From: Candidatus Omnitrophota bacterium
Lineage (GTDB): Bacteria > Omnitrophota > Gorgyraeia > VGKN01
Reading direction: 5' to 3'
Assembly (NCBI GenBank): GCA_020052955.1
Contig: JAGVOB010000137.1
Coordinates: 1-52,224 of the forward strand
DNA: 52,224 bases
Position 1 is the first letter of the stretch; every line of letters begins with the position of its first letter. Position numbers and translations under genes: made by a program. This document shows positions 14,072 through 43,657 of this stretch, piece after piece. The notes below the pieces were generated by a model. It was not told the DNA's origin and searched no databases. It saw only the letters and a program-made list of their open reading frames with translations.

Positions 14072-14072
14072 A

Positions 14073-15658: not shown

Positions 15659-15697
15659 GATATTTTTTTATCCATCTCTTATATTTATAGCGCACTT

Positions 15698-16415: not shown

Positions 16416-16616
16416 AAATTAGAGCCTTGCTTATTCATGATAATACATAATCTTGGATACCATGTAAATATTAACATTATTGTATCTTAAAACACCATTC
16501 AAACTAGAACAGAGAATAAAATGTTACTATTCCTTTGATTTTATTCTGAATTTTGGGTAATATTTTATTCTACTATCGTTTGTTGTAATTTAACATCAAC
16601 TTATTTTATAGTCGGT

Positions 16617-18431: not shown

Positions 18432-18437
18432 TAAAAT

Positions 18438-21970: not shown

Positions 21971-22066
21971 CCGGGATGAGATTTGCTTAGCCCCTTTTTT
22001 GTTGGGGAGAGAAAGAGAGTTCTGAATGGATTGTTTAATGTTAATTTTAGAGAAAGGAGACATCCT

Positions 22067-24322
22067 ATGAGAACGTGGAAAATATGGGTTGTGATTCTGA
22101 TGTCGGTAATAATAATTACAGGTTATGGTGGATTCTGCAAGAAGGATGATAAGAATAAAGATACTATCGCCGGGAGTAGCGCACCTGCTCCAATTACTGT
22201 TAAACAAGCAATGACCGATCCAAATGGTGAAGCATATTTTACAGATAATTCAACTGGTGCGCCTGTAATAATAAAACCTCAAGATAGTGATACTCTGTTA
22301 CCTCTCGCAGGTATTAGCGTTACATTTTATGATGGTGATGGGTCAGAAATCTTTATGTTGAGTGACCCTACTAAAAACTATCTTCCTTCTATGGGCGTCT
22401 ATACCAGCAATTCTGAACATATTATAAAAATGGGAAAAGTGAGCGGAGGCGCTTATCCGGGTACCTATTATGTAGCACGTATTGATGATGAAGAAAGAGG
22501 GAGTGCCTTATGGAGTTGGGAAAATGCGAACCATATGGGGCACAAAGATATTACTTATATAAAAACAATTAATTATAATGAGACCCAAGAGATTTATGAA
22601 AGAACTGAGACAATAATCAAAGTGTGTTGGATAGTGACCGGGAAAGTGGTTACCTGGCTTTTTGGAATAAACATTCCTTTTTCCCCAGTTGACCTTATCA
22701 ATACAATCGCTCCAGAAGACCCAAATCCTCCCCAGCGATGGGATATGTACACTACTCAAGAATCTGGGGGAACTTCATATACGCATCTTATTCCAAGCAA
22801 TGTCCCTGAAGTATCAATAACTTCTTTGACTGTAGATGGTGCTAATATATCTGTCTTATGGCAGGGTACTGATAGAACTACTTACCCTGATGATCTTTAC
22901 TATACTAAACCCGTGCCTGATAGAGAGGACCTTACGGTCGCCCTGGGTCCAACTGGTAATCCCGACATTATGTATAGTTATAGAATAACAAACACTTCAA
23001 CTGGAAACGTATATTTTGATTGGACAACATGGGAATTGAGTAAAATTTCTGTCGAAATATTTTCTATACCCTATGGAAATTACCGCTTTGAGGTAAAAGC
23101 ACAAGATGAGGTAGAAAATGTATCAAATATAGAATTACAAAATTTCTCGGTCACAACCGAAACCATAAGTACTTCAAATCAACCAACCGGCATAACTTCG
23201 GGTGATATTGGTACAAGTTACGATTATTCTACGGGCGGTTCATCTTCTAATTTAGAACATACAGTACAGTATCAATTTGACTGGAAGGGGGATGGAACTG
23301 ATCTTTCTGTCTGGGGCTCTGCCACACAATCAAAAACATGGTTTTCGGGTGGCACTTATTCTGTCCGGGCAAGGGCTCGTTGTACCACTCATACCACAGT
23401 CGTTTCTGATTGGTCGTCAGGACTATCGGTTACTATATCGTCTCCACCAGCTGTGGATGACTACGTCTGGGTTGCAAATTGGGGTAATGGTACTGGTAAT
23501 ACTGTCACCCGCATCAAGAAATCAGATTTAAGCACAACCGCGATTACAGTAGGAACTGGTCCATTTGGAATTGCGGTAGATGAGACTTATTGCTGGGTGA
23601 CAAATAATAATTCTAATAATGTCACACGCATCACGAAGTCCACATTAGCCACGACCAATATTACAGTGGGAGGTAACCCCAATGGAATCGCGGTAGACCA
23701 GACCTATTGCTGGGTAGCAAATAAGGGTTCTAATAATGTTACACGCATAACGAAGTCTACGTTAGCCACAACTAACATTACAGTGGGAAGTTACCCTGTT
23801 GGAATCGCAGTAGATGCAACCTATGTCTGGGTGGCAAATTGGGGTTCTGATAATGTCACCCGCATCAAAAAATCAGATCTAACCACAACCCAGATTGGTG
23901 TGGGAAGTAACCCCGAAGGAGTCGCGGTAGATGAGACCTATGTCTGGGTAATAAATGTTGTTTCTGTTGGTACTGTTACTCGCATCAAAAAATCTGATTT
24001 AACCACAAACCAGATTGCTGTGGGAAGTTGGCCCATGGGAGTCGCGGTAGATGAAACCTATTGCTGGGTAACAAATGGTAATTCTAATAATGTTACTCGC
24101 ATCAAGAAATCAGATTTAAGTACGACTACGATTGCAGTAGGAACTTGGCCCTATGGGATTGCTGTAGATACGACTTATGTCTGGGTGGCAAATGCTAATT
24201 CTAACAATGTCACCCGCATCACGAAATCAAATTCTGCCACGACCAATATCACGGTGGGAACGGTTCCCGATTCGATTGGAGATATGACCGGTTATGCCTA
24301 TGATAATTACAGTAACCAATAA
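22067..24322 (+). CDS. Lipoprotein with a C-terminal array of ~40-aa YVTN-type beta-propeller repeats
   Basis: Start re-set to MRTWKIWVVILMSVIIITGYGGFC (lipobox Cys) behind AAGGAG. It carries about 8 repeats of VG..P.GIAVD.TY.WV.N..SNNVTRI.KS.L.TT.I. Confidence 0.75.
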   Translation: MRTWKIWVVILMSVIIITGYGGFCKKDDKNKDTIAGSSAPAPITVKQAMTDPNGEAYFTDNSTGAPVIIKPQDSDTLLPLAGISVTFYDGDGSEIFMLSDPTKNYLPSMGVYTSNSEHIIKMGKVSGGAYPGTYYVARIDDEERGSALWSWENANHMGHKDITYIKTINYNETQEIYERTETIIKVCWIVTGKVVTWLFGINIPFSPVDLINTIAPEDPNPPQRWDMYTTQESGGTSYTHLIPSNVPEVSITSLTVDGANISVLWQGTDRTTYPDDLYYTKPVPDREDLTVALGPTGNPDIMYSYRITNTSTGNVYFDWTTWELSKISVEIFSIPYGNYRFEVKAQDEVENVSNIELQNFSVTTETISTSNQPTGITSGDIGTSYDYSTGGSSSNLEHTVQYQFDWKGDGTDLSVWGSATQSKTWFSGGTYSVRARARCTTHTTVVSDWSSGLSVTISSPPAVDDYVWVANWGNGTGNTVTRIKKSDLSTTAITVGTGPFGIAVDETYCWVTNNNSNNVTRITKSTLATTNITVGGNPNGIAVDQTYCWVANKGSNNVTRITKSTLATTNITVGSYPVGIAVDATYVWVANWGSDNVTRIKKSDLTTTQIGVGSNPEGVAVDETYVWVINVVSVGTVTRIKKSDLTTNQIAVGSWPMGVAVDETYCWVTNGNSNNVTRIKKSDLSTTTIAVGTWPYGIAVDTTYVWVANANSNNVTRITKSNSATTNITVGTVPDSIGDMTGYAYDNYSNQ

Positions 24323-24367
24323 AAAGTAATGGAAAAACATAATTCCTATGAAAAAAGGAGATGTTAT

Positions 24368-26215
24368 ATGATAAACACAAAATGGCTTAGAATAGGAATG
24401 ATTTGCCTCTTAATGGGTATTATGATGCTGGGTTTCGGCGGATTATGCAGTAAAGAAGGTGGTAATAAGGATACCACCAGTGGTAGTAGTGAACCAACAC
24501 CTCCTTCTCCCGTTACCATATCTAATCCAGTTGATGGAACAACTAATGTTTCAATTTCTGAATCATTAAGTTGGGGTTCTGCCGCAGGAGCAACATCTTA
24601 TGATGTTTATTTCAGTGTTAATATCCCCCCAATAACTCTCGTGTTTAAAACAAATACCTCTGGAATAAATTATAACCCGGGTCCTCTTGATTATAACACC
24701 ACTTATTGGTGGCGGATAGATTCCGTGAATAGTGCCGGTTCGACCACTGGTAATGTCTGGAGTTTCCAGACTGAAACCGCACCCACTACACCACCTTCAG
24801 CCCCCTCGGGTGTTTATGCTTCTGCGGGCAATCAACAAGTTACTGTAAGTTGGAATAACGTCTCCGGCGCAACTTCTTACAACATTTATTGGTCAACTGT
24901 TTCAGGCGTGACAAAAGCAACCGGTACAAAGATTAGTGGTGTTACCGGTCCTTATGTTCATACCGGCAGAACCAACGGCACTACTTACTATTATGTAGTT
25001 ACTGCTGTAAATAGTTACGGTGAGAGCAGTGAATCATCTCAGGTATCGGCAACGCCTGATACAATCCCCTCAGCACCATCAGGTGTTTCTGCTACTGCTG
25101 GCAATACTCAAGTTACTATAAATTGGAACAATGTTTCTGGTGCAACCTCTTATAATGTCTATTGGTCAACTACTTCAGGTGTAACAAAAGCGACAGGTAC
25201 AAAGATTAGCGGCGTTACCAGTCCCTATGTTCATACCGGCAGAACCAACGGCACTACTTACTATTATGTAGTTACTGCTGTAAATAGTTACGGTGAGAGC
25301 AGTGAATCATCTCAGGTATCTGCCATACCCACCGCAGGAGGCGGAACTGCCGTGGATGACTATGTCTGGGTGACAAATCAAGAGTCTGACAATGTTACTC
25401 GTATCAAAAAATCTGATTTAACTAAAACTACAATCGCTGTGGGAGATTGGCCCATGGGAGTCGCGGTAGATGAAACATATTGCTGGGTGACAAATTGGGG
25501 TAGTGGTAGTGGGAATACTGTCACCCGCATCAAAAAATCAGATTTAAGCACAACCACGATTACAGTAGGAACTGGTCCATTAGGAATTGCGGTAGATGAG
25601 ACCTATTGCTGGGTGGCAAATCAGTTGTCTGGTAATGTTACCCGCCTCAAGAAATCAGATTTAAGCACGACTACGATTACTGTGGGAACTGCTCCCACTG
25701 GAGTAGCGATCGATGTCACCTATGTCTGGGTGGCAAATGCGAGTTCTGCTAATGTTACTCGTATCAAGAAATCTGATTCCAGTAAAACCACTATTTCAGT
25801 AGGGCCAGATCCTATTGGAGTCGCAGCAGATGCTACCTATGTCTGGGTAGCAAACAGTGATACTGATAACGTCACCCGCATTAAGAAATCAGATTTAAGT
25901 ACAACCACGATTACTGTGGGAACTTGGCCCTATGGGGTCGCGGTAGATTCAAACTATATTTGGGTAACAAATATGGGTTCTGATACTGTTACCCGCATTC
26001 TGAAATCTGATTCCAGCACGACTACTATTAATGTGGGAACTAGCCCAATTGGAGTCGCGGTAGATGCTACCTATTGCTGGGTAGCAAACTCAAATCCTGA
26101 TTATGTCACTCGTATCCTGAAATCTGATTCCAGTAAGACGACGATATCGGTAGGACCTGCCCCATTTGCGCTGGGTGATATGACCGGTTATGCCTATGAT
26201 AATATTCCCCAATAA
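24368..26215 (+). CDS. Paralogous lipoprotein: FN3-like domains (two near-identical) plus a YVTN beta-propeller repeat array
   Basis: Start re-set to MINTKWLRIGMICLLMGIMMLGFGGLC behind AAGGAG. FN3-like units read PSAPSGV.A.AGN.QVT..WNNVSGATSYN.YWST.SGVTKATGTKISGVT.PYVHTGRTNGTTYYYVVTAVNSYGESS. It shares the C-terminal GDMTGYAYDN with the preceding gene. Confidence 0.75.
   Translation: MINTKWLRIGMICLLMGIMMLGFGGLCSKEGGNKDTTSGSSEPTPPSPVTISNPVDGTTNVSISESLSWGSAAGATSYDVYFSVNIPPITLVFKTNTSGINYNPGPLDYNTTYWWRIDSVNSAGSTTGNVWSFQTETAPTTPPSAPSGVYASAGNQQVTVSWNNVSGATSYNIYWSTVSGVTKATGTKISGVTGPYVHTGRTNGTTYYYVVTAVNSYGESSESSQVSATPDTIPSAPSGVSATAGNTQVTINWNNVSGATSYNVYWSTTSGVTKATGTKISGVTSPYVHTGRTNGTTYYYVVTAVNSYGESSESSQVSAIPTAGGGTAVDDYVWVTNQESDNVTRIKKSDLTKTTIAVGDWPMGVAVDETYCWVTNWGSGSGNTVTRIKKSDLSTTTITVGTGPLGIAVDETYCWVANQLSGNVTRLKKSDLSTTTITVGTAPTGVAIDVTYVWVANASSANVTRIKKSDSSKTTISVGPDPIGVAADATYVWVANSDTDNVTRIKKSDLSTTTITVGTWPYGVAVDSNYIWVTNMGSDTVTRILKSDSSTTTINVGTSPIGVAVDATYCWVANSNPDYVTRILKSDSSKTTISVGPAPFALGDMTGYAYDNIPQ
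24794..25339 (+). repeat. 273-bp tandem duplication (two FN3 units) inside the lipoprotein gene
   Basis: The period of 273 nt comes from aligned landmarks (tcagc at 24797 and 25070). About 97 nt read identical by eye at 24953-25049 and 25226-25322. Confidence 0.8.
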
Positions 26216-26367
26216 GTTGGGGCAAAGAATCAATTTAGAAAATGTCTAAAATAGGCATCTGAGGTATTAGAAAAAGCGGTTTATAAACATTGAATATTGA
26301 AAACTATACGGAACTGGACCCGTAGTTTAATTTGACATTTTATAGTCAATAAAATAATAATACTAAC

Positions 26368-26748
26368 ATGGCTGACGAAAAACCTAAGATAACGGTTTTA
26401 GACGACGATGCAGCAATCGGCGACTTGTTAACGAAGTATTTGACTAAAAGAAATTATGCAGTCGCAAGTTTTGTAAGCGCTAAACAAGCATTAAAATACA
26501 TAGAAAACAATCCGGTTAATTTAATGATAGTTGATGTGAATATGCCTGAAATGAACGGATTTGAGGTAACCAAAGCAGTTAAAACATTGAAGCCCAATTT
26601 ACCCATTATGATTATGAGCAGTGATTGTCTCCAAGAAAGAAAGGATGAGATGGCTAAATTGGGCATCTGTGATTATATCCAAAAGCCTTTTAATCTAAAT
26701 TATCTGGAAAACAGAATCGCTTTAAATCAATCTGTCAATCATCGTTAA
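26368..26748 (+). CDS. Stand-alone response-regulator receiver (CheY-like) domain
   Basis: ITVLDDDAAIGDLL...LMIVDVNMPEMNGFEV...DYIQKPF: acidic pocket, phospho-acceptor Asp and conserved Lys. Confidence 0.8.
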   Translation: MADEKPKITVLDDDAAIGDLLTKYLTKRNYAVASFVSAKQALKYIENNPVNLMIVDVNMPEMNGFEVTKAVKTLKPNLPIMIMSSDCLQERKDEMAKLGICDYIQKPFNLNYLENRIALNQSVNHR

Positions 26749-27217
26749 AGCTTCCTGAGTCCGCCAAACTCGTATAAGAATTTTCTCCGATTATAATGTG
26801 GTCAAGAACTTGAATATCTAACAATTTCCCGCACTCTCTTAATCTCTGGCTAATCTCAATATCCTCTCGGCTTGGCGTGCTATCGCCCGATGGATGATTG
26901 TGAGTAAGGATAATTGAGGCCGCATTGCCTACGATAGCTGGCTTGAAAACTTCACGAGGACAAACTATTGAGGCTGTAAGAGTTCCTACGCTCACCACAT
27001 TTATTCCCGTCATCCTACTCCTGGCGTCCAGAATCAATACGACAAAATATTCACGATCAGCCTCAAATAAACCTTTGAAAATTTGATAGACGTTTTCGGA
27101 ACACTTGAATATCGGATATCTTTTCAATTCGTGTTCTCTGACCAGCGAGACGTAAACATTTAGTTTACTGAATTTCTTATCTATTTTTAAGCCATTAAGT
27201 CCGAGTAAGTCTTCCAT
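26735..27217 (-). CDS. radC: RadC-like JAB/MPN domain protein
   Basis: Start re-set to MEDLLGLNG behind AAGGAGG. JAMM motif ILTHNHPSGDSTPSREDI. Its 3' end overlaps the convergent receiver gene by 14 nt. Confidence 0.8.
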   Translation of the reverse strand: MEDLLGLNGLKIDKKFSKLNVYVSLVREHELKRYPIFKCSENVYQIFKGLFEADREYFVVLILDARSRMTGINVVSVGTLTASIVCPREVFKPAIVGNAASIILTHNHPSGDSTPSREDIEISQRLRECGKLLDIQVLDHIIIGENSYTSLADSGSFNDD

Positions 27218-27332
27218 AAAAATCCTCCTTAAGAAGTGAAGGAGACAGCCAAGATAATAGTATCTCAACTGCCTCCTTTATGGTTAGAAGCGGCTACTTT
27301 GATGTGAAGTGTCTTGGAAGGATGGAAAAAGG

Positions 27333-27548
27333 CTAATTCCCTTTCACTCCTCCTTGTTTGACCCACTCAATTTCGTCATCAGCCCGAACGACGGTTTGCA
27401 TATCGCTTATCTCATTAGAGTTCAGCAATACTCTCATATCATCCGAGATATTGAGCGCTTGGCGTAACCCATTCCTAGCATCGGAGATTGCTCTCCCGTC
27501 GAATGTGGTAACGTCCGTTTCGTTACACCCGCAAATAAACTTTGCCAT
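27333..27548 (-). CDS. Small ubiquitin-like (beta-grasp, PRTRC-C/BilA-like) protein with an internal Gly-Gly near the C-terminus
   Basis: 71 aa ending ...EWVKQGGVKGN. Assignment rests on size, position after the E1 gene and the GG plus 4-residue tail. SD AAGGGGGTGA. Confidence 0.55.
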   Translation of the reverse strand: MAKFICGCNETDVTTFDGRAISDARNGLRQALNISDDMRVLLNSNEISDMQTVVRADDEIEWVKQGGVKGN

Positions 27549-27610
27549 CTGTTATCACCCCCTTTCAAATTAGGCGTTAGAGTTTTAATAAGATGTGATG
27601 ATGGACAGGA

Positions 27611-28294
27611 TTACCTTTGCCGGGGCAGTGCCTTATTCCGTTCAATGTCAAAATAAACCTCAGCGTACCTCACCGGTTTCTCTGCAACGATTGTGTAAAA
27701 AGCATTCAGCATTAAACAGGCAGCGGTTAAATTGGTGAAAATGATTTGCTCTGAGCCGGATAGTCGCGCCAGTTCCTCGCAGGAAAGTTCAGCAGGATTC
27801 TTATCCCTTGGCTGGGCAATTTCCGGATGAAATCTTTCTATGGGCGGATTTCTACTTCGACCGTTTTTCTTAATGTAAACTTGGATATTGCCGTCACTGA
27901 TTTCATTCCCGCCAGAAACAAGAACAACGTCCTGCAAACGCTGGCATCGTTCAGACACAATCTTTCTTGTAGCATGATTATCCACAGCCAAGAAAACTAC
28001 GCTCTTTTCACCAATAACCTCAACTACATTCTTCTCAGTCACAAACTCAGGAATTGGCACAATCGTAAGCGTATTAAATAACGACTTGAGATAGACTGCC
28101 TGCGCCTCTGCCTTGTTTTTGGTTTCTTCCAAAGCAGAGATATTCTGCCTGACAAAGTTTTCCCTACCGTATCTATCTCCATCCACCAAGATTACCTTCT
28201 TGCAATGCTGTGTAAAGTTAAGGTATCGACACAGCACCAATGCCAGGAACGAACCAATACCACCCAGCCCAATCACGACTATTTTTCCAATCAT
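27611..28294 (-). CDS. ThiF/E1-like adenylyltransferase
   Basis: Rossmann loop VVIGLGGIGSFLA and ILVDGDRYGRENFVRQ (D-x-D...N-x-x-R-Q). There is an ATGA overlap with the JAB gene. Confidence 0.75.
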   Translation of the reverse strand: MIGKIVVIGLGGIGSFLALVLCRYLNFTQHCKKVILVDGDRYGRENFVRQNISALEETKNKAEAQAVYLKSLFNTLTIVPIPEFVTEKNVVEVIGEKSVVFLAVDNHATRKIVSERCQRLQDVVLVSGGNEISDGNIQVYIKKNGRSRNPPIERFHPEIAQPRDKNPAELSCEELARLSGSEQIIFTNLTAACLMLNAFYTIVAEKPVRYAEVYFDIERNKALPRQR

Positions 28295-29133
28295 AGTTTA
28301 ATCTCCTTTCTTTGATTGCCAAAAAGCCGTTGATTTACAACATCTTTCTCCTTGCTGTAATCAAAAAAATCACAAGGGCTTCCTGGTTCTTTAATATCCT
28401 CCTGAATGCAGACATCCTCATGAGAGCAACAAAAGCACTCATCATCCAATGGTACATTTCCCTTGTCATCTTCTGGCTTTTTGTCAGTTTCTGGCTTTCC
28501 CAATACATCTTCCCTCTCACCAAAAGGCTCTTGGAGTGGCTTTACCTTTTTGAGCCATTCCTGATTAACCATCCTAATAGGCTCATTAAGACCCTCAATA
28601 ACGCTTTCAGGCTCTAATTCAGCCCTCTTTCCGTTAATTACCACGTAACAGGCTAATTCAGGCTTAACCTCGTCAAATTTGCTCACTATAAGGTGCAGTC
28701 CGTCAAAGTTTAGCTCGTCCTGATGGTCTGTCCCAGAGGCAAATACCCCAAAGCCCGGGTGAGAATGAACGCTACCCACAACTCTCCTGTTTGTTTCGTT
28801 CTTATACTGTACCCTGGCGCCAGCCACTTCTTGCTCCGGGGCATACGCGGACCAGGTATCCTGCTCATAACATAGCAACACCATTGCTTCTGACTTGTAT
28901 TTCTGATACACGGCGTGGAAAAAGGCCAATACTTCCTTGATTAGTTCATAGGGTATCTTTTTGGCCTTTAACGCAAACGTTTCTTCCTGCTCAGGCAACG
29001 GAAGAGCGTCAATCTTGACACAGGCATCAAACAACTCATTCTTCTTAAGGATATAAAATCCTTCCTTAGCCACAATATAAGCATAGGGCTCATTTCCCGG
29101 GATTGGCTGCCCGGCAAAGTACATCTTTATCAT
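28291..29133 (-). CDS. JAB/MPN (JAMM) metallopeptidase, PRTRC-A/BilC-like
   Basis: Exact JAMM spacing HSHPGFGVFASGTD (H-x-H-x7-S-x2-D) with an upstream Glu (YKSEAMVLL). Strong SD GGAGGTG. Confidence 0.8.
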   Translation of the reverse strand: MIKMYFAGQPIPGNEPYAYIVAKEGFYILKKNELFDACVKIDALPLPEQEETFALKAKKIPYELIKEVLAFFHAVYQKYKSEAMVLLCYEQDTWSAYAPEQEVAGARVQYKNETNRRVVGSVHSHPGFGVFASGTDHQDELNFDGLHLIVSKFDEVKPELACYVVINGKRAELEPESVIEGLNEPIRMVNQEWLKKVKPLQEPFGEREDVLGKPETDKKPEDDKGNVPLDDECFCCSHEDVCIQEDIKEPGSPCDFFDYSKEKDVVNQRLFGNQRKEIKL

Positions 29134-29383
29134 TTTTCACCTCCTCTAATGATTTTACGAGTTCTGCCAAATTGCCAGATTCTTCAATAGCCTCAGGCGT
29201 AATACACGTCTTTTTTTGCCGCAACACCCTGACTGCCTGCGTCAAAATCAGGTCTTCTAATTTTCCACTGAAATCCTCAATCTCCTCATCAGAACGTTCA
29301 ATGAAATCCTTCAAGACATCTTTAACAGAGTGAACACTATTGGCAATAGCAACCTTTCGTATGATTTGTTTAAATATTTTCAT
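29090..29383 (-). CDS. Hypothetical helical protein within the Ubl operon
   Basis: 97-aa acidic helical ORF. It overlaps the JAB gene start by 44 nt. Confidence 0.4.
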   Translation of the reverse strand: MKIFKQIIRKVAIANSVHSVKDVLKDFIERSDEEIEDFSGKLEDLILTQAVRVLRQKKTCITPEAIEESGNLAELVKSLEEVKNDKDVLCRAANPGK

Positions 29384-29386
29384 TCG

Positions 29387-30058
29387 CTACTCCTTTTCCA
29401 GAACGTTGTCAAGACACCGGCTAAGGCTCTGGTAGGGAAACCATTCCACAGAGCAAACATTTTCTAAGTTGAGCCGTTGCCAGGTGTCAAAACAATGCTC
29501 TTCCTGGTTTTGTTTAAGCAGGGCTATCTGTTTTGGTATCTTTTCCCTGAAAAACTGGTTTAAATCAGTGTTAAAGGTTGAGGCAAAAAAGTAACCAATC
29601 AAGCTATTAATCTTTTCCGGCGCCTCAGCCGTTACGCTATACCTGAAGTCGCCCAGACAGACAGCTGAATCCGGGCTGTGGAGATTCGGGATTGGCGGGG
29701 TGAACAGTTTATCTTCGCTACTGTTTAATCTCTGGTTTCTAAAATAAAAGAAACATTTTTCAAATGCATAGTTTTCAAAGAGTATCAGGAAGTAATGGTA
29801 CGGGAAGGCCAACGTATACTCTTTGGAATGCGCTCCATTGTGGGCATAAAGCACCTTTACCATTGTAGGTTCTTGTTCTATCAGATATGCCTTTTTGTAA
29901 TCCTTTGAGGCGTAGAAAATCACGCCTTTTGGCAGGATTGGTGTTCTTAAACCGCTTGACTGAATCAAGGCATTCTTAAAGTCAGTTAATTTTACCCGCC
30001 TGACTGTAGAAACTTCCTTTAATTCAACAATACCTTCACTGATTTCAATTATTTCCAT
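29387..30058 (-). CDS. Prokaryotic E2/UBC-like protein (start re-set; the ORF-track N-terminal extension is rejected)
   Basis: Starts MEIIEISEG behind AAGGAG-6nt. FTPPIPNLHSPDSAVCLGDF resembles the E2 (H)PN...x-C-L/W-G catalytic-Cys flap of Prok-E2 families. Confidence 0.55.
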   Translation of the reverse strand: MEIIEISEGIVELKEVSTVRRVKLTDFKNALIQSSGLRTPILPKGVIFYASKDYKKAYLIEQEPTMVKVLYAHNGAHSKEYTLAFPYHYFLILFENYAFEKCFFYFRNQRLNSSEDKLFTPPIPNLHSPDSAVCLGDFRYSVTAEAPEKINSLIGYFFASTFNTDLNQFFREKIPKQIALLKQNQEEHCFDTWQRLNLENVCSVEWFPYQSLSRCLDNVLEKE

Positions 30059-30080
30059 AAACAACTCCTTTCTAAAAATA

Positions 30081-30456
30081 GGGAAGGGGCACCTCGCTAG
30101 TCCGCAACCGTAAAGCCGCAAGCGAAGCCGAGTAACAGGTATCAAACGAGGCGAGCGGGCGGCTCGGAGGTGCGGTAAGCTAATTGTGTAATATATTGAT
30201 ATTCGGGACTGACGAAGCATCAGTCCGGCTTATTCCTTGAAACAAATGGTCAGGCCACGAGATGCTATTACTCTCGTCGTTATCGTGTTATCATCAGAAA
30301 AGATTATATCCTTTCGGAAATAATGGATTCTGAAAGGCGACAGACCTATAACCCTCGTTTCGTTTCTACAAAGCATTAACCCTCGGCCCAATTTTCATCG
30401 AGATGATGGTATGGACTTAGCAAATGGAACAAACCTAAAACCAAGGTGCCCTTCCC
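30081..30456 (-). ncRNA. Candidate retron msr-msd non-coding RNA bounded by a1/a2-like inverted repeats (strand assignment tentative)
   Basis: gggaaggggcacct (30081-30094) pairs with aggtgcccttccc (30444-30456), with one bulged C. Internal hairpins lie at 30206-30226, 30257-30277 and 30310-30337. A GC-rich imperfect long hairpin at 30102-30175 abuts the 30081 repeat. No credible ORF is present. Confidence 0.5.
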
Positions 30457-30464
30457 ATGATTAT

Positions 30465-31337
30465 TTAGCAGACTTTAACCAGATTGTTTTGTAAGGCTAA
30501 CAGGTTCTTTATCTCATTCACATCCTGAACAAGTCTTTTCCCTACATCAGGATTTATGCTTTTGATAAACGAGGCCTTGCCTTGCAATTTTGCCATATTA
30601 AAGGCGGTGTTTTCCCCTTTGATTAGTTTTGTTTTGATATTATGCAACTCTGCCCTGAATTTCCTTTTCTCTTTACGAAGAATATTTGGTGTTTTATTCA
30701 CCACCACGCCAGTTACAACTTGTCTATTGCCGTTTCTCATCACAAGAGTCTTTGCCTTGTTAATCTTAAAGCCGGTTTCGCACACGAATTTTTCAACAAT
30801 AGGCAGAATCATGTTCAGTTTGGTGTCCCTCGAAGAGAAAATCATATCGTCAGCGTATCTTGTGTAAGCGGTATTCCTCATGGAATCTGTCCATCTCTTA
30901 GCCAGTCCTGCCAGGCGATAATCCAGTTTCTTCAACACCATATTCGATAAGAAAGGGCTGGTAGGTGCTCCCTGAGGCAGATATGCGTTAACCCCATTGT
31001 TAAGAGTACAAATCTCAGCAATTCTTTGGGCATCCTCTGCGCTTATTCCCTCATTCTTCAGGGCATTAAGTACATGGTCCTTGGTTATTGAACCAAAGAA
31101 ATCCTTTATATCTGCTCTGATTACAACCCTCTTATTCGTATGAACCTGCGCATTAGTTGAGATGCTTCTATTTTTTATAAACGCGTGAGCGTATTTTGAA
31201 GGACCGATTCTCCTTGCCATTAACCATCTTAAGACAGATCTCTGTAATGCCTTTAACTTTGGTCTTGGTTCGGCTATCTCCCTAAATTCACCGTTACCCT
31301 TGGGAATCTTGCGAATAATGTAACTTCGCTTATCCAT
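30465..31337 (-). CDS. Retron-type reverse transcriptase
   Basis: 290 aa with IPKGNGEFREIAEP, SISTNAQVH (NAxxH), LPQGAPTSPFLSN, YADDMIFSS (YxDD) and QVVTGVVVN (VTG). It has no maturase or endonuclease domains. Confidence 0.85.
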   Translation of the reverse strand: MDKRSYIIRKIPKGNGEFREIAEPRPKLKALQRSVLRWLMARRIGPSKYAHAFIKNRSISTNAQVHTNKRVVIRADIKDFFGSITKDHVLNALKNEGISAEDAQRIAEICTLNNGVNAYLPQGAPTSPFLSNMVLKKLDYRLAGLAKRWTDSMRNTAYTRYADDMIFSSRDTKLNMILPIVEKFVCETGFKINKAKTLVMRNGNRQVVTGVVVNKTPNILRKEKRKFRAELHNIKTKLIKGENTAFNMAKLQGKASFIKSINPDVGKRLVQDVNEIKNLLALQNNLVKVC

Positions 31338-31381
31338 AAATCACCCCCTTTTTTTCTCTGTTTTATTGGTTAGTTCATCTT

Positions 31382-31693
31382 TTAATAATCCTCAGGCTTC
31401 ATGTAAGTAAATCCTTCTCCATTCCAGATAACCCAAATCTTGTCTTTCGAAATGACTCTAAGTTTCATATATGGTGTATCCTCCGAATCTGGTTGCCTGA
31501 GCAATTCCAATCCACGATTAACTAAATCCTTACGTTTCTGCTCATCTTCATAACCTTCCTTGAAAAGATTCGCAGTAATCACAACAGACTGATTTCCGAT
31601 AAAACCTACCGGAACTAAAATCCCATCCTCGATCGCTTGTTTCCTAGTGTAGGTGTATATGACTTCCGGCTCATCTTTATTATTCGTGTTCAT
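31382..31693 (-). CDS. Small conserved protein of the type seen in plasmid/ICE leading regions (start re-set to MNTNNK)
   Basis: IYTYTRKQAIEDGILVPVG...IWVIWNGEGFTYMKPEDY. I recall this Y-T/S-R-x-Q-A-I-E-D-G-x-L-V pattern from plasmid-borne hypothetical proteins, but the family name is not certain. SD AAGGAG-6nt. Confidence 0.5.
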   Translation of the reverse strand: MNTNNKDEPEVIYTYTRKQAIEDGILVPVGFIGNQSVVITANLFKEGYEDEQKRKDLVNRGLELLRQPDSEDTPYMKLRVISKDKIWVIWNGEGFTYMKPEDY

Positions 31694-32317
31694 ATTTCGC
31701 TCCTTTCTTAGCTTATTTCTCAATTATAGAAGTAAAAAGTTCTGACTATATAAACTGATAGATCCAATGGAATAACCCTAAAAAGGAAGAGATACCTTCC
31801 TGCTGTAGGGTGTTATGAGCAACATCTTAGGCGATAACCTTTAATGTTTTATTTGCTCGATTGTTGTTAGTGCTTGCGCACTTTTAAGTGATGGCATTAG
31901 AATGGGTTGTGGGTTTATATATTTTATTGTGATACAAAATATATATTATGGCTTGAACTTAGGAAATGATTGGACACTGACAGGGAATATTTTGGTGTCA
32001 GTATTGGCTTTTCAGGACAGTGGAAAAACATAAGAATACCTGAACTTAGCGTACCCTAGCTCCCTCTATCAAGAGAGGCCAGTGCCGGTCAAGAAACCGC
32101 TGTGGAAAAAAGGGGGAAAGCATGCTTGAAGTTGGTGTTTAAAGGTGGTGTCTAATATGGTACCTTAGGAACCACCCCTGTTTGCTCTAACCCCAAATCC
32201 TGCATATAATTGTATAGTTTAGGGTTCCCCTAATCGCTTCGCTCGGCTTCGCCTCGCTCAGCGCCCCCCCCTGTTTAGCGTAAAGTTTATAAAGTAGTGT
32301 GTCTTATAGTTTATCTT

Positions 32318-32551
32318 ATGCGTAAATCAAACCACTGGGATAAGGATATTTTAAGTCAATCGGCATTTGAGATAGAGATTAGCCCTTATTTACTGCGTCT
32401 TTTTACTGATTACGAAACCCATCTGCTTCGCAAGAAGTTAAGAGACGAGGTTCTTACTAAATCAGAGCAGGTTAAGTATAGTGCGAGGATAAAGAAAAAA
32501 ATATTGGCTATTATGAAGCTACAGAGTTTAGGACGACTTTTGGAAGAATAA
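32318..32551 (+). CDS. Hypothetical small protein (ATG start chosen over the track's GTG)
   Basis: 77 aa, helical and basic. It is the first gene of the plus-strand cluster. Confidence 0.35.
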   Translation: MRKSNHWDKDILSQSAFEIEISPYLLRLFTDYETHLLRKKLRDEVLTKSEQVKYSARIKKKILAIMKLQSLGRLLEE

Positions 32552-32644
32552 AAAATTTATTTGGTGTCATCAAAACTATCTTTTCTAACCTATATTTCTT
32601 AAAACCGAAACATTTATATAGTTCATACCCTTTAGACAGATAAC

Positions 32645-33040
32645 ATGGGAACAAGAAGCACAACAAAGATATACGATAATGGAAAGTTTCTGTTAGGAAT
32701 ATACAAGCAATTAGATGGATATCCAGAATATTGGGGTAAAGAATTAAAGAAATTTATAGATAATGGAGTATTTATAAATGGGATTAATGGCTCTAAAAAA
32801 GGAAATGAAAAGTTTATGTTTAATGGAATATCTGATTTCGCTTTAATGTTAGTAAAAGAATTTAAAGAAGGAACAGGAGAACTTTATGCTACAACTGAAG
32901 ATGACGAACAGGAATATAATTATATAATAGAATACGAGGATACTTTAAACGAGAACGGCATACATACTGAATATAAATTAACTTTAAGATGTAAAGAGAA
33001 CAATAATTTTAATTATTCTTGGGAAGGGAAACTAAAATGA
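32645..33040 (+). CDS. Hypothetical protein
   Basis: 131-aa ORF in a visibly more AT-rich stretch. There is an ATGA overlap with the next gene. Confidence 0.45.
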   Translation: MGTRSTTKIYDNGKFLLGIYKQLDGYPEYWGKELKKFIDNGVFINGINGSKKGNEKFMFNGISDFALMLVKEFKEGTGELYATTEDDEQEYNYIIEYEDTLNENGIHTEYKLTLRCKENNNFNYSWEGKLK

Positions 33041-33327
33041 AATATTGTAAAAAACATAAAGAGTTTTATCCAGCGATAAGTAAATGCTCTTGGTGTGAGG
33101 CAAATAAACTTGTAATGATAGACAACATAAATAGATATAAAAACAAATATTGCGAATGCACTAAATCACATTTTAAAATAACAGACGAGGGAGTAGCACA
33201 TAAAGGAGTTTTATTTTTAAGATTTGAGAACGAGAACGAAAAATTAAACTTATTGAATATGGGGGATAAAGAAATGTATGAATTTCTTAACTACAAATGG
33301 AATTTATATATGTCTTTAAATGATTAA
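33037..33327 (+). CDS. Hypothetical Cys-rich (zinc-binding?) protein
   Basis: MKYCKKHKEFYPAISKCSWCE...YCECTKSH. ATG re-set; overlaps both neighbours. Confidence 0.45.
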   Translation: MKYCKKHKEFYPAISKCSWCEANKLVMIDNINRYKNKYCECTKSHFKITDEGVAHKGVLFLRFENENEKLNLLNMGDKEMYEFLNYKWNLYMSLND

Positions 33328-33520
33328 AGTGAGACATATAGCAGAACGATATTTTGAGTTGGAAGAATGCCTAAATTGTAAATCCGAGAAGTTCAAAGCA
33401 ATCGTGACATTACCTACGATATATTATAAAGATGGAGATGAATATTGGACTGATAAAAATATTGATTACGAAGATGTAAAAGTTTTTTGTTCTAAATGTA
33501 ATTTGAGGGTTGAGGAATAA
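33320..33520 (+). CDS. Small zinc-ribbon protein
   Basis: CLNCKSEKF...CSKCNL (two CxxC pairs). Confidence 0.45.
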   Translation: MIKVRHIAERYFELEECLNCKSEKFKAIVTLPTIYYKDGDEYWTDKNIDYEDVKVFCSKCNLRVEE

Positions 33521-33607
33521 AATGAACCACGAAATGTGTAATTACGTTCTCATAAATGACAAGTGCCTGAATAGTTGTAAGCAAGCAAGGTTTTTCGAGG
33601 TGTTAAG

Positions 33608-35725
33608 ATGGACATAAACGCCCTGCGAGTGTTCAACTCACTCTACGATTTGGGAATAACCGAGAACGAGTTCAAAGAGGTTGAAAACGAACAAGAACAC
33701 ACAGAAAGGACAGGGCTTTCTATCAATTTAGTTAAAAAGGGCAAGATTATAGGAGTAAGCCACGACGAGAAACATCAGGTTGTAATCAAAGAAACAAAAT
33801 GCAGTATTAAACCCGCACCGAATAGCCGAGTTCTTTTTAAAACCCTGATAACTTTTGTGGAACTCCCAAAGGAAGTGTATGTTCTCCACCAGATAGCACA
33901 ATACAGGGCTTTGGATACCGACATAAAGTATATTGCGAATAATTTAGAGGAACTCAAAGACAGGATTTGCGACAGGTTTATTGATGAGTATCCTAAAGAA
34001 TTAGGCAGTATCTATGATGAGGCGTATGACGATTTTGACGAAAGAGAAAAAAACAAGATATTAAAGGGAAAGGTTGCAGAGGAACAACTAAAGGCACTTT
34101 TTTGGTTGTTTGACGAGGACTATCATACATTCGAGCCGACAGAAGCGAGGGAAAATATAGCGAAAATCGTCAAGGTATTCTCCCGCAACAACAGAAGGTT
34201 AGCCATAATCCAAACCAACGCAAATTGGAAGAAGCAAAGAGGCGGATTTTTCAAGGCAAGACGGACAGAACAAATAAAGAGAACGACATTCAAAATAATA
34301 ACATTCACGCCACGAGATAGGCAATACAATTATGTCTGCCCAAACAGAGAGGTTTATATTAGAGAGTATGGCGGAAACTCTGATATTTGGCTTGATGAAG
34401 ATTTAAGCGGAAAAATAACCGCCACAGAATTGGGAGTGCTGTCGAAACGATTAAAAGAAGGATTTGTGTTTCTAACTGCTGACGAGTATAACAACCAGAA
34501 ATCAGGGATAAGAATTGAATTGATGAGTGCCAAGCGAGAGGAACAAGAGCAACAGGCAAGGCATACTTTGGTTAAGTCCATTCAAAAGCAGTTTGGTAAG
34601 GGGAAAGTAACAAGGCAGGGCATAACCTTCACCAAGAACAGCGTAAGTTACGAAAGAATTATTTTAAAGGGCAGAATGATAGGCGAGTATCTTTGCCAAC
34701 AGAGTATAATCTTACAAGAACGTCCTGACTTCAACAAAATCTTTGAGGGGTATGTTGATTATCTTTTAAATTATGAAATCAGCCAAGACATCTATGGAAA
34801 TTCCTTGATTAAAGGGTGTCGGTTTACGGGTAAAGAGATAATAGAGATAGGAAAGATAAAAGTAATTCTCGAGGAAAGAAAAAATATCCTGTTTATCAAT
34901 AACCACAGGATACGCAAAGAGGACATAGGAACGACGATAAAAAGAGCAATCAATTACAATAGCCAAGAGCAATACAACGAGTTTGTTTCTGATACGAGCA
35001 AAGTAAATCTTGCTTTCCAAAAAATTCTGACGCAAGGCGGGGTTAGTTTCAAGTTAAAGATAGACAAGACAAATGATAATTGCCTGATGACAGAAAAAGA
35101 CGAGGCAAATATACTTCTGTCAATCCCGATAGTGAGAAAAGATAACAAGAACTACGCCCAGATTGACGGACAGGAATACAGAATTAGGGACACAACCGCC
35201 CTGCTCGATTTAGGAAAAGATATTGAAAGACACCGACTACAAGGTGGTTATTTGCAAAGGACAATCAAACTGCTGTATCGGGCGATTGAGGGAATAACTC
35301 ACAAGGAAATAGGCGAATTAATCAGAAATGGTAAGACAGAACACGAAAAAATGATGACGAGAATTAAACAAGAACAGGAAGCCAAACTGAAACGAAGCGA
35401 GGAATTTCTTGCTCACGCCGTAAAACTCACTCACGCAACGAGGGTTAAGAATGGTTATTTTGTGAAAGGATTAAACTGCATTACCTATTATGTCGGTGAT
35501 GATTTGGGAGTATGGACAATCAAAGGTGGGAAGCAGGAAAAATACCTCTGCATAATTGACATAAACAGCGAGAGAGAAGACAAGGCAGGGAAAAACGATT
35601 GTATCGCCAAGAGGTTATTGGCGTTGTCAAAAGACAGAGTGGTGGCAAAAGAAATTTATGAACAAGGCGACAAAATGGATAGTTGGTGGAACGAAATCCA
35701 AGAACCTTGTAGGGTGGTAGCATAG
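33608..35725 (+). CDS. Large hypothetical protein, first gene of the coupled 705aa-E1-Ubl-89aa-ATPase string
   Basis: 705-aa ORF with no motif recognised by eye. Its stop is immediately followed by the E1 ATG. Confidence 0.55.
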   Translation: MDINALRVFNSLYDLGITENEFKEVENEQEHTERTGLSINLVKKGKIIGVSHDEKHQVVIKETKCSIKPAPNSRVLFKTLITFVELPKEVYVLHQIAQYRALDTDIKYIANNLEELKDRICDRFIDEYPKELGSIYDEAYDDFDEREKNKILKGKVAEEQLKALFWLFDEDYHTFEPTEARENIAKIVKVFSRNNRRLAIIQTNANWKKQRGGFFKARRTEQIKRTTFKIITFTPRDRQYNYVCPNREVYIREYGGNSDIWLDEDLSGKITATELGVLSKRLKEGFVFLTADEYNNQKSGIRIELMSAKREEQEQQARHTLVKSIQKQFGKGKVTRQGITFTKNSVSYERIILKGRMIGEYLCQQSIILQERPDFNKIFEGYVDYLLNYEISQDIYGNSLIKGCRFTGKEIIEIGKIKVILEERKNILFINNHRIRKEDIGTTIKRAINYNSQEQYNEFVSDTSKVNLAFQKILTQGGVSFKLKIDKTNDNCLMTEKDEANILLSIPIVRKDNKNYAQIDGQEYRIRDTTALLDLGKDIERHRLQGGYLQRTIKLLYRAIEGITHKEIGELIRNGKTEHEKMMTRIKQEQEAKLKRSEEFLAHAVKLTHATRVKNGYFVKGLNCITYYVGDDLGVWTIKGGKQEKYLCIIDINSEREDKAGKNDCIAKRLLALSKDRVVAKEIYEQGDKMDSWWNEIQEPCRVVA

Positions 35726-36301
35726 ATGAAAATCTTACAGATAGGTTGCGGTGGAATTGGAAGTTATCTTATTTCCGAGATAACGGAGTGCTTTGAGCAA
35801 GAGCAGATAAACGCTTTCACAGATATATCCATAGCCGATAGCGATATGATTGAAATGGAACAATTAAGGTATCAGAACTTCAAGTCAAACGAAATCGGAA
35901 TGAACAAAGCAAAGGCATTAGGTAAAAGATTTGATGTCAAGGCAATAATGAAAAGAGTTGAGAAAGAAAACCAAATTAAAGATTATGACATCATTATCCT
36001 ATGTGTTGATAACGAAAAAACAAGGGAGATGGTAATAAGATACTGCCACAAGAACGACAAGGAGTTTCTTGATTTGAGGGCAACAGGCAGAAGAATATTT
36101 GCTATGCCCAAAACAACCCTTGAGGGCAACTTAAAGTTTGTGGATAGCAGGGATTGGAAAGAATATAGTTGCCAAGACGAAATGGATTTAGAAAAAGGAC
36201 TAATCCAGAAAGGCAACAAGATAGTGGCGTTGATAGGCGTTCAAATGCTACTTAATCTGTTGAGAGGACACAATAATAGAATAATAAACGAGGTAATCTA
36301 A
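35726..36301 (+). CDS. Short ThiF/E1-like adenylyltransferase (second copy in the window)
   Basis: ILQIGCGGIGSYLISE Rossmann loop; ISIADSDMIEMEQLRYQNF (D-x-D...L-x-x-Q). Only 191 aa. Confidence 0.7.
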   Translation: MKILQIGCGGIGSYLISEITECFEQEQINAFTDISIADSDMIEMEQLRYQNFKSNEIGMNKAKALGKRFDVKAIMKRVEKENQIKDYDIIILCVDNEKTREMVIRYCHKNDKEFLDLRATGRRIFAMPKTTLEGNLKFVDSRDWKEYSCQDEMDLEKGLIQKGNKIVALIGVQMLLNLLRGHNNRIINEVI

Positions 36302-36302
36302 A

Positions 36303-36581
36303 ATGAGGACAATAAAAATGTTTGTGGAAAGCCCGAATGGACACGACACGATAGAAGTGCCTGAAAACAAAGTCCAAGAGGAAGTGGAAAAGCAACTGAA
36401 AGACGATAAATGGGTTACGATAGAAAATGAGCAAGGCACAGAACTCCTGACAGAAAAGGACATTCCCGCTACCAAGACAATAAATGAAACAGGAGTGGAG
36501 AAAACCGACGAGGAAAAGTGGGCGGAGAAATTTGAAAATGTCAAAAGCGTAACAGCAACGAACAAGGTGAAGGGTGGATAA
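36303..36581 (+). CDS. Ubiquitin-like protein ending in an exposed C-terminal Gly-Gly
   Basis: 92 aa ending ...TATNKVKGG-stop. It starts 1 nt after the E1 stop. Confidence 0.6.
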   Translation: MRTIKMFVESPNGHDTIEVPENKVQEEVEKQLKDDKWVTIENEQGTELLTEKDIPATKTINETGVEKTDEEKWAEKFENVKSVTATNKVKGG

Positions 36582-36582
36582 A

Positions 36583-36852
36583 ATGAAACTTACCGAACTG
36601 ATAAAGGAACTGCACGATAAGAAAACAGGGGTTTTCATTAATGGTATGGGTTTGGGGAAAATTACCGAGATAGAAAGCGATTTCATCAGTTTTGAAGTCG
36701 TCAGAAAAGAGGAAAACAAGAAGGGAACAACGCTGAAAAAAGAACTAACGCACATTCCTATTGACAAGATAGAAACCATCTCGGAAGGGGAAAAGGAACT
36801 GCCAAAGAGCAACGAAGACGCAAAGATAGAGGACGCACTCGGGGGGATATAA
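36583..36852 (+). CDS. Small protein ending ...ALGGI (possible second Ubl-like or adaptor)
   Basis: The ATG at 36583 lies 1 nt after the Ubl stop (the track's GTG start at 36574 is rejected). The C-terminus is LGGI-stop. Confidence 0.4.
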   Translation: MKLTELIKELHDKKTGVFINGMGLGKITEIESDFISFEVVRKEENKKGTTLKKELTHIPIDKIETISEGEKELPKSNEDAKIEDALGGI

Positions 36853-38073
36853 ATGCTAACCAAAGACGAGGAACAACAACTAACCAAACTTGTTATCAAG
36901 GCAAAAGAAAAATGCAAAAACGAGTATGGCGTAGAAATCAAAAAACCAATTCAGATAGATACAAGCAAATCATTTGAGCAAAATAAAGTGTTAATCGTTC
37001 AGGCAATCAAAGATGAAAAAGATTTGCAGTTAAAAGACAAGCCAAAGACGACACCTTCGGCAATTTCGGAACGCAAGAAGCAATCGGCGTTGGAACAGGC
37101 AAAAAAGAACGAGGAGTTACAGCGTATGAAGGCAGAGGAACAAAAACTTGTTGCCGAATGGAAAGCCACGCCACCCCAAGATGTCCAAATACCTGAATTT
37201 GAAACCGCCAAGCATTTAATCCTTGCTACTGCGAAAGGGGACGGCAACGCTACTCTCATTACAGGCGAGGGCGGAATAGGTAAGACATTCTTGGCTATCA
37301 ACACCATCAAGGCGGTTACGAAGGATTTTGAGTTCTTTAATGGATACACTACGCCTCTTTCCTTCTATAAATTCCTCTACGGACACAGGGACAAGCTAAT
37401 TCTTCTTGATGATGTGGAAGGAATATTTAATGACGAGAAGGGAATGGCTTTGTTGAAAGGGGCTTTATGGGACGCTGATGGAAAGAGAATAATCAACTAT
37501 GCCTCAACCAGCGACAAGGCAGAAGGATTACCGAGTATGTTTGAGTTTAAAGGCAAATTAATAATGCTCTGCAACAAAGTCCCCAGAGAAAACGATATTA
37601 GTGTAAGTGCTATGATAAGCAGAACTATCAGTTACGAACTTTCATTTAGCCATTTGCAGAAAAAGAGGATAATGTATGAAATCCTTGATAAAAAACAAGG
37701 GCTTACAGATGAACAGAAAATATTGGCAAAGCAACTGATAGACAAACACACGAACCTTATCACCAAACACTTTAATTTCAGAACCCTTGAAAGATTACTC
37801 GTATTTATCCGCTATAATTCTGTTCTTGCAGAACAGCTATTTACATCAACCATCAAGCAAGACGAGGACGAAACGATAGTGTGGGAACTAATGAACTCGC
37901 AGAAAGGGATTAGCGAACAAATAGCTGTTTTTCACCAACTGACAGGCAAGTGTCGCAGGACATTCTACAACATTAAGAGAGGATTGCAGAAGCAAATGGA
38001 AGCAGACAGGAAAAGTGCAAAAGTGCAACCAAAGGAAGATGTTGCACTTGCACAAAATGAGGGTGGGCAGTAA
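36853..38073 (+). CDS. P-loop (AAA-like) ATPase
   Basis: Walker A LITGEGGIGKTFLA; Walker B KLILLDDVEG. The N-terminal ~120 aa are charged and coiled. Confidence 0.7.
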   Translation: MLTKDEEQQLTKLVIKAKEKCKNEYGVEIKKPIQIDTSKSFEQNKVLIVQAIKDEKDLQLKDKPKTTPSAISERKKQSALEQAKKNEELQRMKAEEQKLVAEWKATPPQDVQIPEFETAKHLILATAKGDGNATLITGEGGIGKTFLAINTIKAVTKDFEFFNGYTTPLSFYKFLYGHRDKLILLDDVEGIFNDEKGMALLKGALWDADGKRIINYASTSDKAEGLPSMFEFKGKLIMLCNKVPRENDISVSAMISRTISYELSFSHLQKKRIMYEILDKKQGLTDEQKILAKQLIDKHTNLITKHFNFRTLERLLVFIRYNSVLAEQLFTSTIKQDEDETIVWELMNSQKGISEQIAVFHQLTGKCRRTFYNIKRGLQKQMEADRKSAKVQPKEDVALAQNEGGQ

Positions 38074-41985: not shown

Positions 41986-41990
41986 AAGTA

Positions 41991-43646: not shown

Positions 43647-43657
43647 ATCGGTACTCC

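Follow-up and report, generated by a model that had tools for sequence, protein, structure and literature searches.

Genetic organization of the locus

We analyzed a 52,224-nt stretch of DNA from a Candidatus Omnitrophota bacterium (contig JAGVOB010000137.1; hereafter the window), focusing on a 376-nt structured non-coding RNA at positions 30081-30456 of the minus strand, which we describe as the putative msr-msd RNA of a retron. The genes around it are all encoded on the minus strand and occur in the order DUF6573-like gene, reverse transcriptase (RT) gene, a 406-nt gap (30059-30464), and genes for an E2-like protein, a 97-amino-acid (aa) protein, a JAB-like peptidase, a ThiF/E1-like protein, a 71-aa protein and RadC. 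The RNA segment fills 376 nt of the 406-nt gap between the RT and E2-like genes.

The gene immediately upstream of the gap (30465-31337, minus strand) encodes a 290-aa retron-type RT (Pfam RVT_1, 2.5e-21). Among PADLOC and NCBIfam models, its best PADLOC match was RT_XIII (2.1e-81, covering profile positions 144-426 of 469), followed by other retron RT models at 1e-72 to 1e-50, whereas models of defence-associated RTs (DRT) and abortive-infection RTs (Abi) matched at 2e-14 or weaker. The NCBIfam model retron_St85 scored 225 bits, under its cut-off of 235. The translation contains the motifs NAxxH (as TNAQVH), VTG (as RQVVTG) and YADD, and across 55 members of the RT family residues A63, H66 and G210 show little or no variation; NAxxH and VTG have been described as conserved in retron RTs (Mestre et al. 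2020, PMC7736814). As the coverage of the RT_XIII profile indicates, the protein lacks the N-terminal region of about 140 residues found in type XIII RTs. A protein search placed its homologues in a distinct clade of about 59 clusters of short RTs (277-299 aa, 43-93% identical to the window RT), separated by a clear score gap from longer, more distant RTs.

A structured RNA fills the gap between the RT and E2-like genes

The two ends of the segment form a closing stem. Read on the minus strand, GGGAAGGGCACCT (30456-30444) pairs with AGGTGCCCCTTCCC (30094-30081) with one bulged C, at exactly the positions given by the original prediction, and U30443.G30095 and G30442-C30096 extend this core to 15 bp in total. 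The duplex between the two ends of the 406-nt gap had an energy of -30.8 kcal/mol, a value reached by none of 2000 shuffles and by 1 of 1070 equally spaced segment pairs from the window. An ungapped repeat finder returned the closing stem as 1 of 19 inverted repeats in 2.6 kb. The inverted repeat alone is therefore weak evidence, and the case is carried by the energy test and by conservation.

From 5' to 3' on the minus strand, the element (fold z = -5.5; 91 consensus pairs, 24 of them compensatory) begins with the a2-like 5' arm of the closing stem, GGGAAGGGCACCUUG (30442-30456), which forms helix 1 of the consensus (17 pairs, 5 changed on both sides, 95.8% of alignment cells paired). Directly 3' of this arm is an unpaired G (30441), present in 15 of 15 copies, which we consider the candidate branching (priming) G by analogy with retrons. 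There follows an expanded, multi-branched domain corresponding to the putative msr (30227-30435), closed by pairing of 30427-30435 with 30227-30235 and comprising helices 2-9. It is followed by a conserved 9-bp hairpin, GGACUGAUG-CUU-CGUCAGUCC (30206-30226; helix 10, 100% paired, three compensatory pairs), and then by a conserved single-stranded linker, CGAAUAUCAAUA...ACAAUURGCUUA (30176-30205), with many invariant alignment columns. A long GC-rich hairpin (30102-30175; helices 11-14, 90-100% paired, five compensatory pairs) is the predicted msd, that is, the template for multicopy single-stranded DNA (msDNA). Its stem length differs between lineages, and it ends four bases 5' of a second unpaired G (30097), likewise present in 15 of 15 copies, which faces the candidate branching G and lies directly 5' of the 3' arm. 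The a1-like 3' arm, CGAGGUGCCCCUUCCC (30081-30096), carries the one bulged C and is defined by pairing, covariation and duplex energy.

The internal hairpins listed in the original prediction were recovered on folding. Those at 30206-30226, 30257-30277 and 30102-30175 formed in both the single-sequence fold and the consensus fold, and that at 30310-30337 proved to be the tip of a longer consensus helix (30294-30333). The segment had also been judged non-coding, with the true start of the E2-like gene lying beyond it. Both points held: the stop-free stretches of seven homologs differed in frame and position, so that no open reading frame (ORF) is conserved across the element and a coding reading was rejected, and the E2-like gene has its own start codon (ATG 30058) and Shine-Dalgarno sequence (AAGGAG, 30070-30065).

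No Rfam family matched the segment even at E = 10, and none matched the window at gathering scores. BLAST searches of the segment against plasmid and phage records gave no match, and a motif scan of viral contigs found nothing. Using nhmmer and R1, a covariance model of the 3' module of the element, we found exactly one copy in the window (R1, E = 1e-36). The divergent intergenic region upstream of the operon (31724-32296) also folds well (z = -4.4), and a GC-rich tract within it, CGCTTCGCTCGGCTTCGCCTCGCTC (32236-32262, plus strand), resembles part of the msd hairpin. The original prediction had named this region, at 31.7-32.3 kb, as an alternative source of msDNA; it matched neither nhmmer nor R1, and we rejected it as a second copy of the element.

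Covariation and strand

Relatives were collected by exact-protein look-ups, which yielded the flanks of twelve clade members, and a genome scan added a thirteenth, the metagenome-assembled genome L001. Scans of genomes, metagenomes and viral sequences with the RT alignment returned almost only more distant type XIII-like RTs, L001 alone falling within the clade; the covariation set is limited because relatives came from the twelve look-ups and these large scans gave almost none. Members of the close subfamily (63-93% RT identity) have gaps of 385-415 nt between RT and E2, and these could be aligned throughout.

RNAalifold applied to the seven full-length sequences gave 91 pairs, of which 24 were maintained through changes on both sides. 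In an independent count, 95.7% of cells were paired, and the 24 compensatory pairs compared with 12.9 +/- 2.1 in shuffles, none of 500 of which reached 24. When the partners were slid by 1-3 columns, pairing fell to 35-50% and compensatory pairs to 1-9. The closing stem alone contributed five covarying pairs. The stems are thus conserved in homologous loci, and the 376-base segment is a real, conserved structured RNA.

The strand, which the original prediction had left unsettled along with the branching G, could be assigned. The single-sequence fold reached -136.7 kcal/mol (z = -5.5) on the minus strand, which is that of the RT, and -119.2 kcal/mol (z = -3.0) on the plus strand. In the seven-sequence alignment, the RT-strand structure contained 86 G.U cells versus 9 A.C cells and was 95.7% paired, versus 83.5% on the opposite strand; four G.U pairs were kept in at least six of the seven sequences. 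Independent consensus folds gave -88.9 kcal/mol for the RT strand versus -73.5 kcal/mol for the opposite strand. The G.U and A.C counts, the conserved G.U pairs and the consensus energies together settle the question in favor of the RT strand.

Two relatives showed further variation. In L177 (RT 78% identical), an extra 48-nt hairpin with a CCCGAUUUUACAUCGGG core is inserted in the msr domain at about 1300-1350, indicating that this domain tolerates insertions. L176 (1-2312) is a fold-back palindrome in which two inverted RT copies meet inside the RNA just past the conserved hairpin, probably an artefact of assembly or amplification at a strong hairpin.

A common plan among copies in relatives

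Altogether, we examined 15 copies of the element from eleven lineages whose RTs are 43-93% identical. All 15 follow one plan: 5' arm, unpaired G, msr hairpins, 9-bp hairpin, long GC-rich hairpin, unpaired G and 3' arm. The distant copies, in L001, L172, L173, L174 (two), L171 (two in tandem) and L258, are only 165-257 nt long and carry the 9-bp hairpin with a UUU or UUC loop, then a linker before the GC-rich hairpin; L001 keeps the layout, although the sequence of the conserved hairpin is absent. With R1, L172, L173 and L174 gave matches over the full length, two of them in L174 (E = 2e-6 to 1.5e-3).

The arm sequences of different lineages are unrelated (GGGAAGGGCACCUUG, AAGUGUCUUG, UUUUCCCUG, AAUGCUUCG, GGCCGGAGCGCCCCG and others), yet each arm pairs with its own partner over 9-16 contiguous bp and only poorly with the partners of other lineages; the arms of the window and of L162 pair over 15 and 14 bp, respectively, with one bulge or mismatch. 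The innermost arm pair is G-C in all copies, and the next G on the 5' side faces a G on the 3' side. In the 13 copies carrying the hairpin motif, a steady 98-131 nt separate the conserved hairpin from the 3' G, whereas the stretch between the 5' G and the hairpin varies from 29 to 219 nt, with 198-219 nt for the close subfamily and 29-110 nt among distant relatives. Since the hairpin-to-3' G distance is steady, the unusual length of the window element comes from a multi-branched msr insertion of about 150-190 nt. Two loci hold two RNA copies per RT with different closing arms, L174 (4150-4354 and 5861-6021) and L171 (4490-4700 and 4722-4970); we know of no retron with two template RNAs.

The conserved hairpin also connects the element to other retrons. 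Its motif, TGAYGYTTCGTCA, occurred 11 times in 239 loci with other, longer RTs (2.0 Mb), against an expected count of 0.07 from composition-preserving shuffles, and all 11 occurrences lay on the RT strand a few hundred bases upstream of type XIII-like RTs. The one motif locus that we checked, L006, which is chromosomal in Chitinophaga ginsengisegetis, is a bona fide type XIII retron (SWIM_XIII, 1e-242; RT_XIII, 8e-192). Its SWIM and RT genes flank an RNA of 235 nt whose closing arms are UGUAAAGAGGAA/UUCCUCUUUACA; the msr part of this RNA holds the conserved hairpin, and a long hairpin precedes the 3' arm. Because the hairpin is common to both, we regard the window element as related to type XIII-like RNAs.

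Interpretation of the element as a putative msr-msd RNA

We consider the segment to be the putative msr-msd RNA of a retron, with a probability of about three in four. The original prediction had proposed this layout on the RT strand from the repeats and hairpins; covariation, the strand tests, the RT motifs, the G residues facing each other in every one of the 15 copies and a hairpin in common with type XIII-like RNAs now lend it support. Judging from sequence, this would be a retron clade combining a 3'-placed, msr-expanded RNA with a new and constant gene partner, a combination that we did not find described.

Several observations weigh against this interpretation. In the window the RNA is found 3' of the RT, as had been noticed at the outset, and the same holds for nine of the ten other lineages, whereas descriptions of retrons place msr-msd upstream of the RT (PMC7736814). 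With 376 nt, the element is also longer than classical retron RNAs, a further point on which the original prediction was correct. In the consensus fold, the two bases after G30441 pair with the bases before G30097 in most sequences, and because pairing continues beyond them, the facing G residues may be a 1x1 internal loop instead of a helix end. No promoter or terminator signal marks the ends of a transcript, and there are fewer promoter-like sites than in shuffles. The covariation set comprises seven full-length sequences from six lineages, and R1 matches type XIII loci only at the hairpin.

If the segment is an msr-msd RNA, the following sequence of events can be envisaged. A minus-strand operon transcript would span the DUF6573-like gene, the RT gene, the RNA, and the E2-like, 97-aa, JAB, E1 and 71-aa genes; such co-transcription is suggested by the gene order and by the lack of a terminator-like site between the RT gene and the RNA. 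The RNA ends would pair (30456-30442 with 30096-30081), placing G30441 opposite G30097, and the RT from the gene just upstream would recognize the msr part, probably via the conserved hairpin (30226-30206). The closing stem would then present G30441, whose 2'-OH would prime copying, by analogy with classical retrons such as Ec86 and with the general description of retrons (PMC7736814). Copying would start at about 30098 and run through the GC hairpin (30102-30175), yielding a branched single-stranded DNA of roughly 80-95 nt. Initiation at G30441 and the making of msDNA are predicted steps, and a functional link with the ubiquitin-like cassette is putative.

A first alternative, which we regard as improbable, is that the RNA serves as template or cofactor of the RT with a product other than classical branched msDNA, perhaps an unbranched or repeated complementary DNA, as made by some defence-associated RTs, or that it acts purely as a structural partner of the enzyme. 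The RNA is tied to the RT under this explanation too, the RT is unusually short and lacks the type XIII N-terminal region, the msr part is greatly expanded, and the two copies per locus in L171 and L174 have no retron precedent that we know of. Set against these features are the matches of the RT to retron models at 1e-81 to 1e-50, versus 2e-14 or weaker for DRT and Abi models, and the specific retron priming geometry of the RNA, with an a1/a2-like stem, an adjacent G and a hairpin beside the 3' arm.

Slightly less probable again is a cis-acting leader of the E2/JAB/E1 operon, acting as a processing site, in translational control or as an attenuator, with no templating role. In every copy, a strong Shine-Dalgarno sequence with a start codon follows the 3' arm at a distance of between a few and about 30 nt, and in most lineages the next gene encodes the E2-like protein. 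The arrangement in three relatives nevertheless ties the RNA to the RT. In L172, the RNA has kept its place next to the RT even though a PNP_UDP_1 gene on the reverse strand lies between it and the cassette. In L171, where the RNA is found upstream only, two tandem copies precede the RT, none precedes the E2 gene, and the RT-to-E2 spacing is only 35 nt. In L174, where the RNA occurs on both sides of the RT, the upstream copy is followed by two small ORFs before the RT gene begins, and the other copy lies downstream of the RT. These arrangements indicate that the RNA tracks the RT, which argues against a simple cassette leader; those of L171 and L174 further indicate that it can lie on either side of the RT, most commonly downstream. 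The hairpin is moreover common to type XIII-like RNAs, including that of L006, which has no such cassette beside its RNA and RT, and no intrinsic terminator follows the element. A dual role, as both leader and template, may also apply. The protein encoded by the inserted gene of L172 (3887-5308, minus strand) is a nucleoside phosphorylase-like protein of 473 aa that might be an extra effector or a mere insertion.

A third alternative, a very improbable one, makes the segment a structure in single-stranded DNA that serves conjugation: a leading-region single-strand promoter, a site for priming, or a portion of the origin of transfer (oriT). Its length, its high degree of structure and the conjugation and leading-region genes nearby (coupling protein, Replic_Relax and RadC in the window and relatives; ParB and ArdC in relatives) would suit this. 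Against it, a single-strand promoter such as Frpo of the F plasmid should fold on the template strand, whereas pairing here is selected on the sense strand (G.U pairs kept in at least six of seven sequences); part of the element is homologous to type XIII-like retron RNAs, including that of the chromosomal L006; and a retron RT accompanies it in every case.

The E2/JAB/E1 cassette

The genes that follow the putative msr-msd RNA form a cassette of ubiquitin-like conjugation components. The E2-like protein (223 aa; 29387-30058, minus strand) has no Pfam match of its own and is 37-38% identical (6e-55 and 1e-56) to the Prok-E2_D proteins of L174 and L171. Next comes a conserved 97-aa protein (29090-29383, minus strand) without a family match; most relatives have an ORF of 85-102 aa at the same position. 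The JAB-like peptidase (280 aa; 28291-29133, minus strand) matches Pfam Prok-JAB at 1.6e-4, below the cut-off; this weak match recurs in relatives, and the L001 protein passes the cut-off. The ThiF/E1-like adenylyltransferase (227 aa; 27611-28294, minus strand) matches Pfam ThiF at 2.8e-21 and PADLOC E1-E2 models down to 7e-9.

The 71-aa protein (27333-27548, minus strand) is, from its sequence features, a possible candidate for a ubiquitin-like tag. Its homologs lie after the E1 gene in six relatives and have a conserved C-terminal G-x-K-G, and the family profile gave a weak match to polyubiquitin (E = 0.006). The AlphaFold model of the protein was poor, with a predicted local distance difference test (pLDDT) score of 54.

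In all eleven lineages with enough flanking sequence, the RT is followed by E2-family-D, JAB and ThiF proteins. In most lineages two small ORFs are also present, one of about 85-102 aa separating E2 from JAB and one of about 70 aa downstream of ThiF. A tblastn search with the window E2-like protein against 72,556 plasmids gave no match, and full-text literature searches found no paper linking E2/JAB/E1 cassettes to a retron or to any RT. The cassette may be the effector of the retron, a putative role, or merely a neighbor on the same mobile element.

Mobile-element context

The window is an integrative conjugative element. Its genes encode an integrase, a type IV coupling protein, a Replic_Relax protein, a type III restriction-modification pair and RadC, and related loci contain ParB, ArdC and sliding-clamp genes. 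In the window, the regions 10658-20795 and 38708-51927 hold the integrase, a Beta_protein gene beside an IrrE/HTH regulator, the type III restriction-modification pair, a TrwB-like coupling protein, the Replic_Relax protein, an AAA ATPase and an nSTAND NTPase. The surrounding element yielded no tRNA gene.

At the upstream end of the operon, the DUF6573-like gene (31382-31723, minus strand; likely start ATG 31693) has a weak match to Pfam DUF6573, and its product is 72% identical to a 99-aa ORF upstream of the RT in L165. Close relatives carry an ORF of 60-62 aa that ends 3-15 nt before the RT start (4812-4997 in L165 and 244-429 in L175). The window lacks this ORF and has a spacer of only 44 nt (31338-31381) in its place, suggesting that the ORF is dispensable or was lost in the window. 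On the plus strand, a second ThiF/E1-like gene (35726-36301; Pfam ThiF, 1.7e-15; PADLOC E1-E2, 8e-8) lies directly 3' of a 705-aa ORF without a family match (the pair spanning 33608-36301), and for this reason the element may carry a second, different E1-based system.

A tentative retron type and its significance

Taking the RNA, the RT and the cassette together, we tentatively suggest a new retron type, a proposal that we hold at well under even odds. Its partner would be a complete ubiquitin-like conjugation set (E2-like protein, JAB peptidase, E1 and small tag) on conjugative elements of mostly uncultivated bacteria, and its template RNA would have moved to the junction between RT and cassette. 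The RT-msDNA complex might control protein tagging, or be controlled by it, for phage defence or for establishment in a new host.

Retrons are classified and understood through an effector that is held in check by the RT-msDNA complex. If the linkage described here is functional, it would join retron immunity to bacterial ubiquitin-like signaling and provide a defined system for asking what such cassettes do on conjugative elements. Surveys that search only upstream of the RT, as in the de novo step of the SPIRE survey, would miss an RNA placed in this way, so that some "retrons without non-coding RNA" may be search artefacts. For DNA production with retrons, too, the short RTs of the clade (277-299 aa) and their well-defined template hairpin are of interest.

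Comparison with known systems

Neither the retron classification of PMC7736814 nor full-text literature searches yielded a retron type with a ubiquitin-like conjugation cassette, and none of the PADLOC system models fits the window. The SPIRE survey (2026) assigned many metagenomic RTs to type XIII; the words ubiquitin and ThiF are absent from its text, and its de novo RNA step covered only the 300 bp upstream of the RT. A retron census (10.1101/2024.01.25.577267) contains nothing on type XIII or on downstream RNAs.

Among known retrons, the element most resembles type XIII. The window RT matches RT_XIII best (2e-81), and the RNAs have in common closing arms, short msr hairpins, a long hairpin beside the 3' arm and the UGAYGYUUCGUCA hairpin in the msr. 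By contrast, the 16 window ORFs scanned (21983-38073) gave no match to SWIM_XIII, the zinc-finger/winged-helix protein that is the hallmark of type XIII, the window RT covers positions 144-426 of the 469 in RT_XIII whereas that of L006 covers 12-434, the RNA follows the RT in most lineages of the window clade instead of preceding it, and the window's subfamily has an msr that is longer by about 150-190 nt.

Classical retrons, including Ec86, resemble the window element in several respects: inverted repeats at the termini, an unpaired G that follows the 5' arm and lies opposite a G preceding the 3' arm, one or several hairpins in the msr, a template hairpin that is long and variable, and an RT with NAxxH and VTG. 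The window RNA differs in lying 3' of the RT inside the operon, and some relatives have two copies. Classical retron RNAs are roughly 150-250 nt long, compared with 376 nt in the window.

As for the cassette, the bacterial ubiquitin-like defence modules Bil and Cap2/Cap3, the latter from type II cyclic-oligonucleotide-based antiphage signaling systems (CBASS), likewise place an E1, an E2, a JAB peptidase and possibly a small tag beside an immune-type enzyme, and the window E1 matches the Cap2-like E1-E2 models of PADLOC at 7e-9. In the window, however, two small proteins from other families provide E1 and E2 separately, and there is no cyclase; a link of the cassette to defence is a conjecture. 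Another parallel is offered by cassettes of the Prok-E2_D/Prok-JAB/PRTRC kind, which are known as families from mobile elements (Pfam Prok-E2_D, NCBIfam PRTRC). The E2-like, JAB and E1 genes have the same order, the carrier is again an integrative conjugative element, and RadC is close by; the window also gave weak matches to PRTRC_A and PRTRC_ThiF, and relatives matched Prok-E2_D. The window clade differs from these Prok-E2_D/JAB/ThiF cassettes in that its own is always preceded by a retron RT and the RNA.

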